Assembly: GCF_003334815.1 (NCBI RefSeq)
Contig: NZ_QOWO01000070.1
From: Escherichia coli
GTDB taxonomy: Bacteria > Pseudomonadota > Gammaproteobacteria > Enterobacterales > Enterobacteriaceae
Reading direction: 5' to 3' (one strand)
DNA length: 5,887 nucleotides
Below, piece by piece: positions 1 to 5,887 of this stretch. Position 1 is the first letter of the stretch. Every line of letters starts with the position of its first letter. The position numbers and the translations under genes were made by a program. A model generated the notes under the pieces. That model was not told the DNA's origin. It saw only the letters and a list, made by a program, of their open reading frames with translations, and made no database searches.

Positions 1-95
1 ATCGACGATTGCTGGAAAGGCTGGGCCATACTCCTCCGGCAGAAGCAGAAAAAGCTTATTATGCTTCCATCGGAAACAATGATCTGGCAGCCTGA
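1..95 (+). CDS. C-terminal 31 codons of IS3-family transposase OrfB (partial; 5' end outside window)
   Basis: Reading from base 3 gives RRLLERLGHTPPAEAEKAYYASIGNNDLAA then TGA at 93..95. This is the same as the C-terminus of the 290-aa ORF at 3770..4642 except for one D to N change. Confidence 0.8.
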   Translation, partial: RRLLERLGHTPPAEAEKAYYASIGNNDLAA

Positions 96-112
96 GTTCA
101 CAGATAAAACAC

Positions 113-137
113 TCTCCAGGAAACCCGGGGCGGTTCA
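113..137. repeat. Terminal inverted repeat (IRR) of IS629-like copy 1, about 25 bp
   Basis: The reverse complement of the terminus, TGAACCGCCCCGGGTTTCCTGGAGA, matches the IRL at 5811 (TGAACCGCCCCGGGAATCCTGGAGA) at 23 of 25 positions. Exact IR length is approximate. Confidence 0.65.
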
Positions 138-145
138 CTTCCCAA

Positions 146-179
146 CCATAATATTTCTGTCATTTCTGCCCCCTATTAT
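146..179 (+). promoter_or_regulatory. Putative promoter of the phytase-like gene: a perfect Pho-box half-site CTGTCAT (157..163), a 10-bp spacer, and a -10-like TATTAT (174..179)
   Basis: CTGTCAT is the 7-bp PhoB half-site consensus, and its spacing to the -10 resembles PhoB-dependent promoters. The distal half-site (146..152, CCATAAT) is weak, and no canonical -35 is present. Confidence 0.25.
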
Positions 180-226
180 GACGTTGTTTTTACTTCTGAG
201 CGATAACAACGAAAAGAGACAATGAC

Positions 227-1570
227 ATGCACAACTCCAAAATCCGACAAGCTGTACTGGTTGGATGCATGACGCTGAGCGCTAACCTGTGGGCCGAAGC
301 GCAGCCGGTGCAGGCAACGCTGGCTGGGCATGCACTGTTGCCAGTAACATCCGCCGTTTCAACTCCGAAGGATGCGCCGAGCGATCTGCAACAGAGCGGC
401 AAATACACCAGCGGCAAACGCGTCACCGAGCTGGGCAGCGTGGCGGGCAAATCCGCAGATCGTCTGACTGGACTCGGCCTGCCGATCAACGGTCAGCCGT
501 TGCAGGGCCACTCAGGTATCAAACACATGCCCGACGGTACCTACTGGGTGCTGACTGACAACGGCTTCGGCAGCAAAGCCAACTCCCCGGACGCCATGTT
601 GTACCTCAACCACTACAAAATCGACTTCAAAGACGGCACGGTAGTACCGCTGAAGACGCTTTTCCTGCATGATCCGGATAAGAAGGTACCGTTCCACATC
701 ATCAACGAGAGTACCGAACAGCGCTATCTGACCGGCAGCGATTTTGATCCCGAAAGCTTCCAGTTTTCCGACAATGCCTTATGGATCGGTGATGAGTTCG
801 GTCCTTACCTGATCAAGACCGACCTGAACGGCAAGGTGCTGGCGGTGTTCGATACTGAAGTGGATGGAAAGGTGATTAAATCGCCGGACAACCCGACGCT
901 GACCCTACCTGGCGCGCCGGACGGCAAGCAGAATTTCCAGGTTGCGCGTTCCAAAGGCTTTGAAGGCATGGCCATCTCGCCGGACGGCAGTAAGCTGTAT
1001 CCGCTGTTGGAAGGGGCATTGTGGGACGGTGAGCAGTTCGAGAACGTTGGCGGAAAACGCTACCTGCGTATGCTGGAGTTCGACGTCAAACAGCAGGTCT
1101 GGACTGGTCGCAGCTGGCAGTACGTGCTGGAAGACAACCAGAACGCCATCGGCGACTTCAATATGATCGATGACACCCACGGGCTGGTGATCGAGCGCGA
1201 CAACGGCGAAGGCACTACGGATAAAGCCTGCGTCGTCGGTGCGCCGACCAACAACTGTTTCAGTCAAGTAGCCAAGTTCAAACGAGTGTATAAAATCGCT
1301 TTCTCGGACACTAACGTCGGTAAACCTGTCGAAAAACTGAGCTATATCGACCTGATGAATATTCAGGATCCGAACAAGCTGGCACGCAAGCCGCTGAGTG
1401 ACGGTGTGCTGACCTTCCCGTTTGTCACCATCGAGAACGTGGATGTGGTTGACGCGAACCACATTATTGTAGGCAACGATAATAACTTCCCGTTTTCCTC
1501 CAGCCGCTGGCCTAATATGGCGGATGACAACGAGTTTATTCTACTTAATGTGAAGAATTTTCTGAAGTAG
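227..1570 (+). CDS. Sec-secreted phytase-like beta-propeller protein (esterase-like activity of phytase type family), 447 aa; function uncharacterised
   Basis: Long ORF with an N-terminal Sec signal peptide (hydrophobic core LVGCMTLSANLWA followed by EAQ) and a weak RBS (AAGAGA) 8 nt upstream. Repeated motifs (DNGFG, GDEFGP, FEGMAISPDG, ERDNGEG, GNDNNFPF) look like the phytase-like fold. The family call is from memory, not a search. Confidence 0.7.
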   Translation: MHNSKIRQAVLVGCMTLSANLWAEAQPVQATLAGHALLPVTSAVSTPKDAPSDLQQSGKYTSGKRVTELGSVAGKSADRLTGLGLPINGQPLQGHSGIKHMPDGTYWVLTDNGFGSKANSPDAMLYLNHYKIDFKDGTVVPLKTLFLHDPDKKVPFHIINESTEQRYLTGSDFDPESFQFSDNALWIGDEFGPYLIKTDLNGKVLAVFDTEVDGKVIKSPDNPTLTLPGAPDGKQNFQVARSKGFEGMAISPDGSKLYPLLEGALWDGEQFENVGGKRYLRMLEFDVKQQVWTGRSWQYVLEDNQNAIGDFNMIDDTHGLVIERDNGEGTTDKACVVGAPTNNCFSQVAKFKRVYKIAFSDTNVGKPVEKLSYIDLMNIQDPNKLARKPLSDGVLTFPFVTIENVDVVDANHIIVGNDNNFPFSSSRWPNMADDNEFILLNVKNFLK

Positions 1571-1792
1571 GGGGGAGATCATCTCATCGCTTACCTTAAA
1601 ACTATCATAAGGGTTTACTTCCCTTCAGCGGCGCACAAGGCGCAGGCTTCTGGCTTTCAGTCTTATCCAGGAGGAACATACTGAAAGGCCTGAGTAAACA
1701 TGAATAAAAGGAATATTATATAACAGATGATTCTAAACCACGCGACAAAGCGTTGAAGGAAGCCTGCGCGCAGCATGACGGGGCTTTACCAT

Positions 1793-1826
1793 AAAAAAAC
1801 GCAGGCTAACCGCGCCTGCGTTTTTT
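1793..1826. terminator. Bidirectional rho-independent terminator shared by the convergent phytase-like gene and phoX
   Basis: A perfect 8-bp GC-rich stem (ACGCAGGC at 1799..1806 pairing with GCCTGCGT at 1814..1821) with a 7-nt loop, flanked by an A7 run (1793..1799) and a T6 run (1821..1826). It lies 20 bp downstream of the phoX stop. Confidence 0.8.
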
Positions 1827-1845
1827 ATGACGGATGAAGCAGAAA

Positions 1846-3825
1846 TCAGGTGCCGATCATACCGCCGTCGGCTTTCACGATAACGACGGTTGAGGAACGC
1901 GGACGACTGGCCTTATCGCCGTCGGGCCAGCTTGATACTGCCGTCGGATGCTGCGGATCGCTCAGCCCTTCGGCTGGCTCGCCAGGGTGCTGGATGTTAA
2001 TAAACAGCGTCCGGTTATCCGGCGTGAACGCGATGCCGGTGATTTCGCAGCCACGCGGGCCGGTCAGGAAGCGGCGAAACTCGTTGGTACCGGGGATCGT
2101 CGCCACCATCTGGTTGTTGCCCATGCCTTCGTAATCTTTACGGTTGATGGTTGATGACGACACGTCGGTCTGGATCCACAGCACGCCGCGGTGATCGAAG
2201 CTCAGGCCGTCGGCGCTGCCGAATTCCGCGCCCTTCATGCTACCTTTGGCTTCCGGTTTGTCAGTATCGGTGCGACCGCCCATCACCAGAATATCCCAGG
2301 CGAACTGCAGCGCGGTCGGGTCGCCGTTCTGCTCCAGCCAGTGAATGATGTGACCGTAAACGTTTTTGCCGCGCGGGTTGGCCGCATCCACCGGCGCTTT
2401 GCCTTCCTTACCGCGATCGCTGTTGTTGGTGAGCGTGCAGTAAACGCTGCCTGTGTGGTATGGATCAACCGCAATCCACTCCGGGCGGTCCATTTTGGTG
2501 GCGCCCACGGCGTCTGCCGCCAGACGGGTTTTAATCAGCAGGTCGCCCTGGTTTTCAAAGCCTTTGCTGGCGTCAAGCCCGTTTTGGCCGAACACCAGCG
2601 GTAGCCACTCGCCTTTGCCGTCATCGTTAAATTTCGCCACATACAGCGTGCCTTTCTCCAGCAGGCGCATGTTGGCTTTGCGATCCCGCGGGTTGAATTT
2701 GCCTTCCGAGACAAATTTATAGATGTATTCGAATTTCTGGTCATCGCCCATATAAACCACAACGCGGTTATCCGGGGCGAGCGTCACCGCCGCGCCTTCG
2801 TGCTTGATGCGGCCAAGCGCGGTGTGCTTGCGCGGCACTGAATGCGGATCGTATGGATCGATTTCCACCACCCAGCCGAAGCGGTTCGGCTCGTTCGGCG
2901 TGACGTCAACGCTGAAACGCTTATCCACTTCGTTCCAGCGGTAAGAGCCGTCGCTGTCGCTGATGCCGTAACGTTTTTCCAGCGGGTTCATCTCCGCTTT
3001 TTTCACGAAAATATCGGACCAGTTCTCTTCGCACGTCAGATAGGTGCCCCACGGCGTAAAACCGTTGGCGCAGTTCTGCATGGTGCCGAGAATGGTTTCG
3101 CCTTTCGGATCGTCAGCCGTTTGCATCAGCGGGTTATGCAGCGCCGGGCCGGTGATTTTCATCGGCGTGTTAACGGTGATGCGGCGCGCGAAAGATGACG
3201 GGCGCACCACTTCCCAGCCCTGGGCCGCTTTTTTTACTTCAATGACCGACACGCCCATTGCGTTCTGTCCTTTCAGCGCTTTATCAGCGCTCCAGTTGGC
3301 ATCGCCATCTTTAAACAGCAGACCGTTATCGATGTATTCATGGTTCATGGCGAGCAGGCCGTGATCGACGCTGTGCCCGCCCTGCGGCAGGCTAAACCAC
3401 GCCATACCGTCGTGGTGCATCCCGGCCTGCGCCGCCTGCTCTTCCGTGGTGTTGCTGCCGTCGGTTTTAAAAACCGGCTGATTCCCGGCAAGCCCGGTGG
3501 CGTCGCCCCATTTGTATAAGGGCTTCGCGATGTAGCCTTCCGGCACGATAACGGTATCTTCCGTGGAAACCGGCAGACTGGTGAAACCGAGCGCCGTCGC
3601 TTTGCCGAGGTTACCGCTTACGCTGGAGACCGCTTTCGCCAGCGCGTTTTCCGGTTTCAGCAGAAACGGGAACGTTGCCGCGGCACCGGCGACCGCGCCT
3701 GTCTGTAACAGGCGGCGGCGCGACAAATAGACTTCCGCCACCTGCGAAAACGCGCGGTTATCACTCGGGTTGCTGGTCTCTTCACTATGCTCACGTTTGA
3801 ATAAAGTTTTTAACGATCTGCCCAT
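1846..3825 (-). CDS. phoX: PhoX-family alkaline phosphatase/phosphodiesterase, Tat-exported, 659 aa
   Basis: N-terminal twin-arginine motif LSRRRLLQTGAVAGAAATFPFL followed by an AxA-type cleavage region (ALAKA). Size and beta-propeller-like composition are typical of PhoX, including a WGTYLTCEENW motif. An RBS (AAGGAAA) lies about 8 nt upstream of the ATG at 3825. Confidence 0.8.
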   Translation of the reverse strand: MGRSLKTLFKREHSEETSNPSDNRAFSQVAEVYLSRRRLLQTGAVAGAAATFPFLLKPENALAKAVSSVSGNLGKATALGFTSLPVSTEDTVIVPEGYIAKPLYKWGDATGLAGNQPVFKTDGSNTTEEQAAQAGMHHDGMAWFSLPQGGHSVDHGLLAMNHEYIDNGLLFKDGDANWSADKALKGQNAMGVSVIEVKKAAQGWEVVRPSSFARRITVNTPMKITGPALHNPLMQTADDPKGETILGTMQNCANGFTPWGTYLTCEENWSDIFVKKAEMNPLEKRYGISDSDGSYRWNEVDKRFSVDVTPNEPNRFGWVVEIDPYDPHSVPRKHTALGRIKHEGAAVTLAPDNRVVVYMGDDQKFEYIYKFVSEGKFNPRDRKANMRLLEKGTLYVAKFNDDGKGEWLPLVFGQNGLDASKGFENQGDLLIKTRLAADAVGATKMDRPEWIAVDPYHTGSVYCTLTNNSDRGKEGKAPVDAANPRGKNVYGHIIHWLEQNGDPTALQFAWDILVMGGRTDTDKPEAKGSMKGAEFGSADGLSFDHRGVLWIQTDVSSSTINRKDYEGMGNNQMVATIPGTNEFRRFLTGPRGCEITGIAFTPDNRTLFINIQHPGEPAEGLSDPQHPTAVSSWPDGDKASRPRSSTVVIVKADGGMIGT

Positions 3826-4642
3826 TGCGGTTTCCTTTCAAAAAATCGATTTCAAGGGGAATCATTTTTATGCACGTGAGTCTACGGAAAGTATGTTACA
3901 GAAATATAATGAGATACAGCGCGTATACGATGAAAATCATCAGGTGTACGGTGTGCGTAAAGTCTGGCATCAGTTGTTACGGGAAGGAATCAGGGTGGCC
4001 AGATGTACAGTGGCGCGCCTCATGGCGGTTATGGAACTTGCCGGTGTTCTCCGGGGTAAAAAGGTCCGCACAACCGTCAGCCGGAAAGCCGTTGCCGCAG
4101 GCGACCGCGTAAACCGTCAGTTCGTGGCAGAACGTCCAGACCTGTTGTGGGTGGCTGATTTTACTTACGTCAGCACATGGCAGGGCTTTGTTTATGTGGC
4201 GTTCATCATTGATGTGTTTGCCGGATACATCGTGGGATGGCAGGTCTCATCGTCCATGGAAACGACATTCGTGCTGGATGCACTGGAGCAGGCGTTGTGG
4301 GCCCGTCGGCCGTCCGGCACAATTCATCACAGCGATAAAGGCACTCAGTATGTATCGCTGGCCTACACGCAGCGGCTTAAGGAAGCCGGATTACTGGCAT
4401 CAACAGGAAGTACTGGTGACTCGTATGACAACGCGATGGCGGAGAGCATCAATGGTCTTTACAAGGCGGAGGTAATACACCGTAAGAGCTGGAAAAACCG
4501 GACAGAAGTGGAGCAGGCCACACTCACGTGGGTGGACTGGTATAACAATCGACGATTGCTGGAAAGGCTGGGCCATACTCCCCCGGCAGAAGCAGAAAAA
4601 GCTTATTATGCTTCTATCGGAAACGATGATCTGGCAGCCTGA
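3770..4642 (+). CDS. IS3-family transposase OrfB (DDE integrase core), 5'-truncated fragment; the first 45 or so codons of this ORF are not IS-derived, so it is probably non-functional
   Basis: DDE-type motifs are present (WVADFTYV, HHSDKGTQYVS, AESINGLYKAEV) and the C-terminus LERLGHTPPAEAEKAYY is typical of IS3-family OrfB. There is no upstream orfA or frameshift window, and the ORF's 5' end overlaps the phoX start on the other strand. Confidence 0.8.
   Translation: MLVSSLCSRLNKVFNDLPIAVSFQKIDFKGNHFYARESTESMLQKYNEIQRVYDENHQVYGVRKVWHQLLREGIRVARCTVARLMAVMELAGVLRGKKVRTTVSRKAVAAGDRVNRQFVAERPDLLWVADFTYVSTWQGFVYVAFIIDVFAGYIVGWQVSSSMETTFVLDALEQALWARRPSGTIHHSDKGTQYVSLAYTQRLKEAGLLASTGSTGDSYDNAMAESINGLYKAEVIHRKSWKNRTEVEQATLTWVDWYNNRRLLERLGHTPPAEAEKAYYASIGNDDLAA
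3864..3901 (-). promoter_or_regulatory. Candidate phoX promoter: -10-like ATAAAAAT with a weak Pho-box-like CTGTAACATACTTTCCGT about 12 bp upstream (on the phoX-sense strand)
   Basis: Position and spacing relative to the phoX ATG are plausible. The proximal half-site matches the consensus poorly. The site lies at the junction with the truncated IS copy. Confidence 0.2.
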
Positions 4643-4684
4643 GTTCACAGATAAAACACTCTCCAGGAAACCCGGGGCGGTTCA
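3905..4684 (+). mobile_element. 5'-truncated IS3-family (IS629/IS1203-like) copy 2: the 3' roughly 60 percent of the element, with IRR but no IRL and no orfA
   Basis: Recognisable OrfB sequence starts around EIQRVYDENHQVYGVRKVW (about 3911) and runs to the terminus ...CGGTTCA at 4684. Upstream of about 3905 the DNA is the phoX 5' region. The left boundary is approximate, give or take about 15 bp. Confidence 0.8.
4660..4684. repeat. Terminal inverted repeat (IRR) of IS629-like copy 2
   Basis: Same terminus as 113..137. Similarity to 1..137 ends exactly after TTCA at 4684. Confidence 0.65.
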
Positions 4685-4705
4685 CAATTTTCTTCAACTG
4701 CAGGA

Positions 4706-4735
4706 CCTGACGGAAAACAAGTGATTTCCGTCAGG
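4706..4735. repeat. Perfect 11-bp inverted repeat (hairpin) CCTGACGGAAA / TTTCCGTCAGG with an 8-nt loop, 21 bp outside the IS629-like right end
   Basis: The two arms are exact reverse complements, read directly from the sequence. No U-run follows on either strand, so it is not a canonical intrinsic terminator. Confidence 0.6.
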
Positions 4736-4951
4736 GAGAAATCGCTTAGCGGGTGTTATCGCAGAAATTCCCACGGAGCCCCATCAACGCCAACCGGTGT
4801 ATATTTCATTTGTGGAGTCTCCAGTCTGAGGGAGCTTTATGCATCCCGTATTGGGCACTATGATGCCGGAAATCTGCGAGGCTCCACACCTGCCAGTTTC
4901 ACCCTTTTAACCATCATACTGCTCCGTGTTTAATTGTGTGGGATGCGTTCA

Positions 4952-5122
4952 TTACATTTTCACCATTTTGCCACTGCGGCCCCGGAAGACGAAGATATGC
5001 CCGGAGAACGGGTCATCTTTCAGCGTGTTCTGCACCTTCGAAGCTAGGCCGTTGAAGCCACAACGCATATCTGTGATGCCAGCGATGATCCAGATTCTGG
5101 TACCGGTCGGCAGCGTTATCAT
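4952..5122 (-). CDS. tnpB: IS66-family TnpB (orf2), truncated: 56 aa where about 115 aa is expected
   Basis: My own translation of the minus strand gives MITLPTGTRIWIIAGITDMRCGFNGLASKVQNTLKDDPFSGHIFVFRGRSGKMVKM then a stop, carrying the IS66 TnpB hallmarks (TDMR.GF.GL, DPFSGH.FVFRGR). Its ATG overlaps the upstream ORF's TGA as ATGA, the usual IS66 orf1/orf2 coupling. No frame continues the TnpB sequence beyond 4952. Confidence 0.7.
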   Translation of the reverse strand: MITLPTGTRIWIIAGITDMRCGFNGLASKVQNTLKDDPFSGHIFVFRGRSGKMVKM

Positions 5123-5796
5123 CGGATCCCCCCTTTCATTTCGCGAATGAGCACCCTAAGAAGTTCCGGAGTGAGAGGGGCAAACAGTTTTACCACACCT
5201 GATTTAAGATGCAGCTCACACTGTGGTGAGTCTACGGTAGTGTCACTCTGGCTTTCATCAGACTTATTTCGCCAGAAAGGATTTGTCACCGGTTTGACGG
5301 GGTCAGGAGTCTCAGTGATTGCCACCGGAACGGCCTGGCATTCCTGGAGATCCTCATCATTCAGCAAGCCCTCTTCATACAGTCTTTTCCAGTTAAACAA
5401 CAGATTGTCATTAATATTGTGCTCTCTGGCGATCCGTGCAACGACTGCACCAGGCTGTAATGCCTGTTTTACCAGCCTGATTTTAAATTCACGACTGTAG
5501 GAGGTTCGTCGTTCTTTTCGCCATGTGCTTTCGCTGATTTGAGGATCATCAGGTAATTCCTTCTTTCTGTTGGCATAAAGTATGGCATCGAGTTGGGCGA
5601 CTGAAAGTGATTCAGGTAATGGCCAGGTAATACCGGAGGCATTAAATCGTTGAAAGAGATTATGAATGGTGGAATGACTGAGACCTAACTGCAGGGCGAT
5701 AGCCCGGACAGATAATTGCTCGTCGAATCTTAGACGTAATGCGTCTGGCAAATAAGAGCGAAAGCCGGTGATATCTTTTGCTGTCTGAGAATTCAT
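5119..5796 (-). CDS. tnpA: IS66-family TnpA (orf1)-like HTH protein (C-terminal 130 aa or so) with an N-terminal 90 aa or so resembling an IS21-family IstA HTH; a possible in-frame chimera
   Basis: The C-terminal part (RRTSYSREFKIRLVKQALQPGAVVARIAREHNINDNLLFNWKRLYEEG ... ELHLKSGVVKLFAPLTPELLRVLIREMK) has the IS66 orf1 HTH and C-terminal pattern and is translationally coupled to tnpB. The N-terminal part (LSVRAIALQLGLSHSTIHNLFQRFNASGITWPLPESLSVAQLDAILY) resembles the IstA N-terminus with its WPLP motif. Both calls are from memory. Confidence 0.6.
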   Translation of the reverse strand: MNSQTAKDITGFRSYLPDALRLRFDEQLSVRAIALQLGLSHSTIHNLFQRFNASGITWPLPESLSVAQLDAILYANRKKELPDDPQISESTWRKERRTSYSREFKIRLVKQALQPGAVVARIAREHNINDNLLFNWKRLYEEGLLNDEDLQECQAVPVAITETPDPVKPVTNPFWRNKSDESQSDTTVDSPQCELHLKSGVVKLFAPLTPELLRVLIREMKGGIR

Positions 5797-5810
5797 CGTT
5801 CGTGTCCATC

Positions 5811-5835
5811 TGAACCGCCCCGGGAATCCTGGAGA
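5811..5835. repeat. Terminal inverted repeat (IRL) of IS629-like copy 3
   Basis: Matches the reverse complement of the right-end termini at 23 of 25 positions. Confidence 0.7.
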
Positions 5836-5863
5836 CTAAACTTCCTGAGAAAGAGGTAAACAG

Positions 5864-5887
5864 GATGACTAAAAATACTCGTTTTTC
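5864..5887 (+). CDS. N-terminus of IS3-family OrfA (MTKNTRF...), partial at the window edge
   Basis: An ATG 53 bp inside the IRL with an upstream AGAGG. MTKNTRF is the start of the IS629/IS1203-type OrfA as I remember it. Confidence 0.7.

Follow-up and report, generated by a model that had tools for sequence, protein, structure and literature searches.

The minus-strand open reading frame of 56 codons at positions 4952 to 5122 of the Escherichia coli DNA analysed here (5,887 nucleotides, hereafter the window) is, by profile and homology searches, the broken 5' part of an IS66-family tnpB gene, and ISEc11 is located in this tnpB at its target site, where the gene is interrupted. With high confidence, the locus is interpreted as the wreck of an ISSfl3-like IS66 element whose tnpB was split by ISEc11 at its target and which later decayed, leaving inert remnants. 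The features that carry this interpretation are collected in Table 1.

Table 1. Features of the tnpB region and its surroundings in the window
Feature	Positions	Strand	Basis or remark
IS3-family 3' 778 bp, with 5'-truncated orfB and right inverted repeat ending at 4685	3908..4685	+	94.3% identical to the full copy in pJNE25-005_2
Plasmid backbone, 97 bp	4686..4782	.	In pJNE25-005_2 between the IS3-family right end and pemI
Blunt junction of ISEc11 nt 177 with plasmid backbone	4782..4783	.	Adjoining matches without overlap
ISEc11 left end, nt 1-177 of 1442	4783..4959	-	177/177 nt identical to the complete copy in p15648-3
ISEc11 transposase start, first 9 codons (MKYTPVGVD)	ATG at 4809	-	Preceded by the 5' untranslated region
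ISEc11 subterminal inverted repeat ATGAACGCATCCC	4952..4940	-	
7-bp extension AAATGTA of ISEc11	4959..4953	-	Extension as defined in PMC11187229
tnpB 5' part, IS66-family	4956..5122	-	167 nt = 55 codons + 2 nt; the called reading frame extends to 4952
tnpA, IS66-family, intact, 225 aa, two HTH regions	5119..5796	-	Profile matches and comparison with the intact element of pTD225C4_139
IS66 left-end leader, last 14 bp, directly upstream of the tnpA ATG	5797..5810	-	Alignment with p15648-3 and pWP8-S18-ESBL-07_1
IS3-family left end, IRL TGAACCGCCCCGGGAATCC..., orfA ATG at 5865	5811..5887	+	97.4% identical to the left end of the full copy in pJNE25-005_2

The translation of the reading frame, MITLPTGTRIWIIAGITDMRCGFNGLASKVQNTLKDDPFSGHIFVFRGRSGKMVKM*, matches the Pfam family TnpB_IS66 (PF05717) with an E-value of 4.5e-16 over residues 9-56, which correspond to model positions 2-49 of 101. 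In a profile search with NCBIfam NF033819 (IS66_TnpB), it scores 57.3 bits over model positions 1-47 of 90, above the curated cutoff of 50 bits, and it falls short of the full length of approximately 115 aa and of the whole domain. A full-length TnpB, rebuilt from a split copy in another replicon, was used as a tblastn query and matches the window over residues 1-56 only (96.4%, E=2e-34), with no further TnpB in the window beyond the stub. The closest intact counterpart, the 115-aa TnpB of plasmid pTD225C4_139, is identical at 55 of the 56 residues, and at 166 of 167 nt in the tnpB 5' part, and goes on with ...KMVKILWADRDG. The first-pass annotation had proposed a truncated IS66 TnpB ending just before a VKILW segment and had suggested TBLASTN as the check; the profile matches, confined to the N-terminal half, the tblastn results and the continuation of the intact protein bear this out. 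These comparisons confirm a similarity to TnpB far above chance, rule out a chance reading frame, and indicate a gene fragment of the IS66 TnpB family rather than a functional member. RefSeq/PGAP labels the same fragment in p15648-3, in pWP8-S18-ESBL-07_1 and in the E. coli 08-00022 chromosome as a tnpB pseudogene ('IS66 family ... TnpB, incomplete'), and the 56-aa stub is best regarded as a pseudogene product of which no function is expected.

Upstream of the stub, the 225-aa tnpA remains an open frame. It scores 293 bits against NCBIfam NF038385 (IS66-like accessory TnpA; cutoff 150 bits) over profile positions 1-189 of 190, contains Pfam HTH_Tnp_1 (E=1.4e-18) and a second, N-terminal HTH region (Pfam HTH_23), and is identical to the TnpA of the intact element in pTD225C4_139 at 222 of 226 compared positions (225 residues plus stop). 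The ATG of tnpB (5122-5120) overlaps the TGA of tnpA (5121-5119), reading ggatccgATGAtaacg, which is the ATGA coupling anticipated in the first-pass annotation. The same 4-nt overlap, at 5122-5119 in the window, is present in p15648-3, pWP8-S18-ESBL-07_1, the 08-00022 chromosome and pTD225C4_139. A literature search on ATGA coupling in IS66 elements returned nothing usable, and the conserved overlap is documented here from these annotated loci instead.

A megablast search of positions 4600-5887 against complete E. coli genomes reveals that homology passes the end of the reading frame and extends from 5810 down to 4783. The tnpB sequence itself stops at 4956 (...GTGAAAAT), and the G of the final Met56 codon together with the TAA stop (4955-4952) is supplied by the end of ISEc11, not by tnpB. 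Base by base, the left junction reads ...ATGGTGAAAAT|GTAATGAACGCATCCC..., in which the 4 bp AAAT (4959-4956) are assignable to either tnpB or ISEc11. ISEc11 belongs to the IS1111 group of the IS110 family. Its short target is GTGAAAATACTG, at which it inserts in a fixed orientation with no extra bases generated, and it moves via a circular intermediate; one copy of the 4 bp formerly called a duplication is assigned to the ISEc11 left end, within the 7-bp extension (Siddiquee et al. 2024, PMC11187229). The element requires a seekRNA from its 3' non-coding region that base-pairs with both target strands, and the essential region is nt 1170-1374 (PMC11187229).

The window carries the left-end identity, the subterminal repeat and the 7-bp extension by which ISEc11 is recognised (Table 1), and the right end of a complete ISEc11 copy contains GGGATGCGTTCAT, with which ATGAACGCATCCC pairs. 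The complete copy in p15648-3 is 1442 bp long with the ambiguous AAAT included, and its transposase gene bears the PGAP name 'IS110-like element ISEc11 family transposase'. The break falls inside GTGAAAATACTG, the published target, which in tnpB is read as GTG AAA ATA CTG (V-K-I-L); the left flank is retained in the window as ...GTGA(AAAT), and the right target half is absent from it. As in the known element, the left end, the extension, the transposase start and insertion at GTGA^AAATACTG are all present, and the orientation relative to the target is that of every other copy examined. Unlike the known element, the window copy has no seekRNA region and no right end, and it can therefore neither excise nor transpose. 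From the DEDD transposase gene and the 3' non-coding region encoding the seekRNA, only nine transposase codons are present, and ISEc11 nt 178-1442 have no match anywhere in the window.

In the complete copy of p15648-3, the 3' non-coding region contains ACAGTATTTT at nt 1283-1292 and GTGAAAATA at nt 1309-1317, each of which matches one target strand and both of which lie within the essential nt 1170-1374. This complementarity and the published experiments suggest that a seekRNA guided ISEc11 to the tnpB site. An Rfam scan of the window (E<=1) matched no family of seekRNAs or bridge RNAs, in line with the absence of the ISEc11 3' non-coding region from the window; it returned only two sub-threshold sRNA matches near 1771-1898, which are unrelated to the tnpB break.

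The same junction is found elsewhere, together with the parts that the window lacks. In p15648-3 (NZ_CP009053.1), the order is tnpA, tnpB 5' pseudogene, ISEc11 transposase, tnpB 3' pseudogene and tnpC, and the same split arrangement occurs in a Shigella dysenteriae pINV-type virulence plasmid. The right junction of the split copy reads ...GGGATGCGTTCATAT|AAATACTGTGGGCC..., and in silico removal of the ISEc11 insert from p15648-3 restores a 115-aa TnpB containing the segment seen in the intact protein. A search with 4783-5122, which spans the tnpB::ISEc11 junction, finds this stretch covered in full in 28 records from 27 genomes, out of 5,426 complete E. coli genomes; many Shigella plasmids carry it as well. 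Across these modules, which lie on plasmids and chromosomes of E. coli, EIEC and Shigella (including p15648-3 and S. dysenteriae NZ_CP026841.1), the junction is identical to that of the window. In the other modules, a complete or internally deleted ISEc11 is followed by the tnpB 3' part (the 08-00022 chromosome excepted), whereas in the window ISEc11 stops at nt 177, where DNA from upstream of pemI takes over.

The unoccupied form of the element is present in pTD225C4_139 (NZ_CP035861.1; nt 2433-5189) as an intact copy of 2757 bp that begins with the IRL GTAAGCGC... at 2433 and ends with ...GCGCTTAC at 5189. It contains tnpA, the 115-aa tnpB with an empty GTGAAAATACTG site and, 19 nt after tnpB, tnpC, whose product is 95% identical (500/527 aa) to a transposase PGAP-named 'ISSfl3 family'. 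Nucleotide identity with the window is 99.0% in the tnpA region and 99.4% in the tnpB 5' part. The neighbours umuD, an ISEc47 remnant, an ISEc60 remnant and a YopT-type protease gene are common to this locus and to that of pWP8-S18-ESBL-07_1, in which ISEc11 occupies the site; given the same surroundings, the two loci therefore constitute an unoccupied/occupied pair. In pWP8-S18-ESBL-07_1 (6002-6340 of the compared locus), ISEc11 at the same tnpB site has suffered a large internal deletion, with approximately 330 nt of the transposase gene left and directly joined to the tnpB 3' part (...CGCCGTAAAAATACTGTGGG), a route of decay that differs from that of the window.

The loci differ in how similar their parts are. 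The tnpA regions of the window, p15648-3, pWP8-S18-ESBL-07_1 and pTD225C4_139 are only ~79% identical to those of the S. dysenteriae plasmid and the 08-00022 chromosome, whereas identity stands at 98-99% for the tnpB 5' part in every locus compared and at ~96.5% for tnpB-3'/tnpC. The IS66 variants are mosaics, which suggests that IS66-family elements have recombined close to the boundary of tnpA and tnpB. Independent ISEc11 insertions into diverged IS66 variants were initially suggested by the identities against the last two loci (82.7% in the IS66 part versus 100% in the ISEc11 part); this idea was withdrawn when the per-gene split placed the divergence wholly in tnpA (79%), with the tnpB 5' part at 98-99%. 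The insertion in the window may have arisen independently or may have been inherited with the tnpB::ISEc11 module of other plasmids. To the right of the complete ISEc11 in the 08-00022 chromosome (6277-6330 of that locus), only 9 bp of the target, AAAATACTG, remain, followed by unrelated DNA (a tyrosine recombinase pseudogene) in place of the tnpB 3' part. The same locus also contains, at 8828-9026, the tnpB of ISCro1, a different IS66-family element, which reads ...IKVLWADSDG... at the equivalent position, and no copy of the exact 12-bp ISEc11 target occurs on either strand of the locus. ISEc11 may thus be confined to the ISSfl3-like members of the IS66 family.

On its downstream side, the ISEc11 remnant ends abruptly. 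Window positions 1-4782 are 100% identical to pJNE25-005_2, and 4783-5810 match the IS66::ISEc11 loci; in pJNE25-005_2 the sequence runs on past this point into pemI/pemK, with pemI starting 65 bp further on. The first-pass annotation had placed the edge of an unassigned segment at the tnpB break. The break stands; its cause, the ISEc11 insertion, had gone unseen, and the segment now resolves into ISEc11 nt 1-177 and then 97 bp of plasmid backbone. At the crossover (4782/4783), there is only loose similarity (6/10 bases), and absent from the window are ISEc11 nt 178-1442, with the transposase gene, the seekRNA and the right end, as well as tnpC, the 3' half of tnpB and the right repeat of IS66. 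The junction is attributed to illegitimate recombination or deletion because it coincides with no IS terminus, the nearest being the IS3-family right repeat ending at 4685. It is found in no other record among 20,395 E. coli records, 72,556 plasmids and the species-representative genomes, the last collection having been searched with the exact 30-mer of the junction. The junction implies the loss or relocation of the adjoining pemIK addiction module in the source replicon, and, being unique, it could be used to mark a strain or a plasmid lineage.

The IS66 element is also damaged on its 5' side, which was absent from the first-pass annotation. IS66 homology to p15648-3, pWP8-S18-ESBL-07_1 and pTD225C4_139 ends at 5810; the IRL GTAAGCGC lies ~68 bp further out in p15648-3, the S. 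dysenteriae plasmid and pTD225C4_139, and in the window this segment is replaced by the IS3-family end beginning at 5811. No terminal inverted repeat (GTAAGCG...) is present at either end, the IRL having been replaced and the IRR being absent. A tblastn search of the window with a 533-aa ISSfl3-type TnpC yields no match (best E about 1), in agreement with the earlier expectation that no orf3 transposase follows. Compared with the element of pTD225C4_139, the window keeps only element nt 69-923 of 2757 and lacks the IRL, tnpB codons 57-115, tnpC and the IRR. The IS66 copy is thus, judged from its gene content and ends, a remnant rather than a functional element, and the description of a dead remnant in the first-pass annotation holds for the full length, tnpC and the terminal repeats alike.

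Further IS3-family sequences surround the locus. The 3' portion at 3908-4685 scores 274.6 bits against NCBIfam transpos_IS3 (profile positions 132-369 of 369). The listed 290-aa reading frame at 3770-4642 (+) does not begin at a real gene start: IS3-family homology is confined to the part from 3908 onwards, and the first ~45 codons are read through from unrelated DNA that overlaps the start region of phoX. At window position 5811 and at approximately 4996 of the pWP8-S18-ESBL-07_1 locus, the IS66 leader is bordered by two different, oppositely oriented IS3-family elements at points ~4-5 bp apart, and the region just upstream of tnpA could be a local insertion hot spot. Window positions 139-3907 hold a two-gene module, in which the reading frame at 227-1570 (+) encodes an 'esterase-like activity of phytase family protein' (447 aa) and that at 1846-3825 (-) a TAT-signal PhoX-family phosphatase (659 aa). 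This module is bracketed by same-orientation IS3-family fragments (a right end at 1-138 and the 3' part at 3908-4685), whose right ends are 97.8% identical, and it is also present on E. coli and E. albertii plasmids and some E. coli chromosomes; it looks like IS-flanked mobile cargo.

The proposed history begins with an ISSfl3-like IS66-family element, 2757 bp in its intact form, with the gene order tnpA-tnpB-tnpC and the ATGA overlap of tnpA and tnpB. As the comparison of loci shows, ISEc11 then entered tnpB at the 12-bp site GTGA^AAATACTG in the same orientation as tnpB, its choice of target probably directed, as published work suggests, by a seekRNA from its 3' non-coding region. The outcome was a tnpB split after codon 55, to which the ISEc11 end adds the G of the Met codon and TAA. 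A deletion or illegitimate recombination, the presumed origin of the junction seen at 4782/4783, would have joined ISEc11 nt 177 to the backbone upstream of pemI, with the loss of the remaining ISEc11 sequence, the 3' half of tnpB, tnpC and the right end of IS66. In a further step, which may have preceded or followed this deletion, an IS3-family element came to abut the IS66 sequence 14 bp upstream of tnpA, as its junction in the window shows, so that the IS66 left inverted repeat is gone from this position. Both the IS66 remnant and the ISEc11 remnant are immobile as a result.

A simple truncation or deletion of tnpB, followed by unrelated DNA and with no specific cause of the break, would account for the absence of TnpC and for the impression by eye that nothing recognisable follows the reading frame within the window. 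This reading has virtually no probability left: it is refuted by the complete identity of the 177 bp past the break to the ISEc11 left end, by the position of the break within the published 12-bp target, and by other replicons in which this junction is accompanied by an entire ISEc11 and the remainder of tnpB. The downstream junction raises a different doubt, namely that 4782/4783 is an assembly chimera formed from repeated IS sequences and that ISEc11 and IS66 are complete in the real replicon. The junction is indeed blunt, lies at no IS terminus, occurs in no other record and is situated in a region packed with repeats. However, no repeat boundary that an assembler would be expected to collapse lies at ISEc11 nt 177, the sequence on the backbone side is unique, and illegitimate deletions are common in nested IS clusters on such plasmids, as exemplified by the internal ISEc11 deletion in pWP8-S18-ESBL-07_1; an artefact is considered unlikely.

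It is extremely improbable that TnpA and the 56-aa stub are kept and expressed as a unit working in trans on other IS66 copies, for example as a regulator. The intact 225-aa tnpA, the preserved ATGA overlap and the persistence of the tnpA/tnpB-N/ISEc11 arrangement in 27 E. coli genomes and in Shigella plasmids would be in keeping with such a role, but descent and plasmid spread account for that persistence. Only 14 bp of the native leader are left in front of the ATG, and scanning 4650-5887 for promoters revealed no sigma-70-like site, which is weak negative evidence; moreover, the stub covers model positions 2-49 of 101 only, and no evidence of selection was obtained. A broader proposal makes ISEc11 a dedicated 'IS-on-IS' parasite that inactivates ISSfl3-like elements, its natural target being a site within the coding region of some IS66-family tnpB genes. 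This proposal, with TnpA and stub modules that might act in trans, is judged very unlikely. The splitting of an ISSfl3-like tnpB by ISEc11, followed by ordinary decay, remains the preferred explanation.

The 12-bp target is given in PMC11187229 with its genetic context unnamed and with zero mentions of IS66. The link between ISEc11 and IS66 may therefore be under-described, although any RefSeq annotation shows it and the original ISEc11 paper (Prosseda et al. 2006, J Bacteriol 188:4681, cited in PMC11187229) probably noted it.

For annotation, the 56-aa reading frame should be recorded as a tnpB pseudogene fragment, positions 4783-4959 as an ISEc11 left-end remnant and 4686-4782 as plasmid backbone from upstream of pemI. 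Beyond correct annotation, the locus is of little importance, and it is no departure from known biology: it is an instance of the ordinary, documented and already known decay of nested insertion sequences on an enterobacterial plasmid. It is, at the same time, a clean natural example of what would be a seekRNA-guided insertion of an IS1111-group element at its published target, followed by decay.
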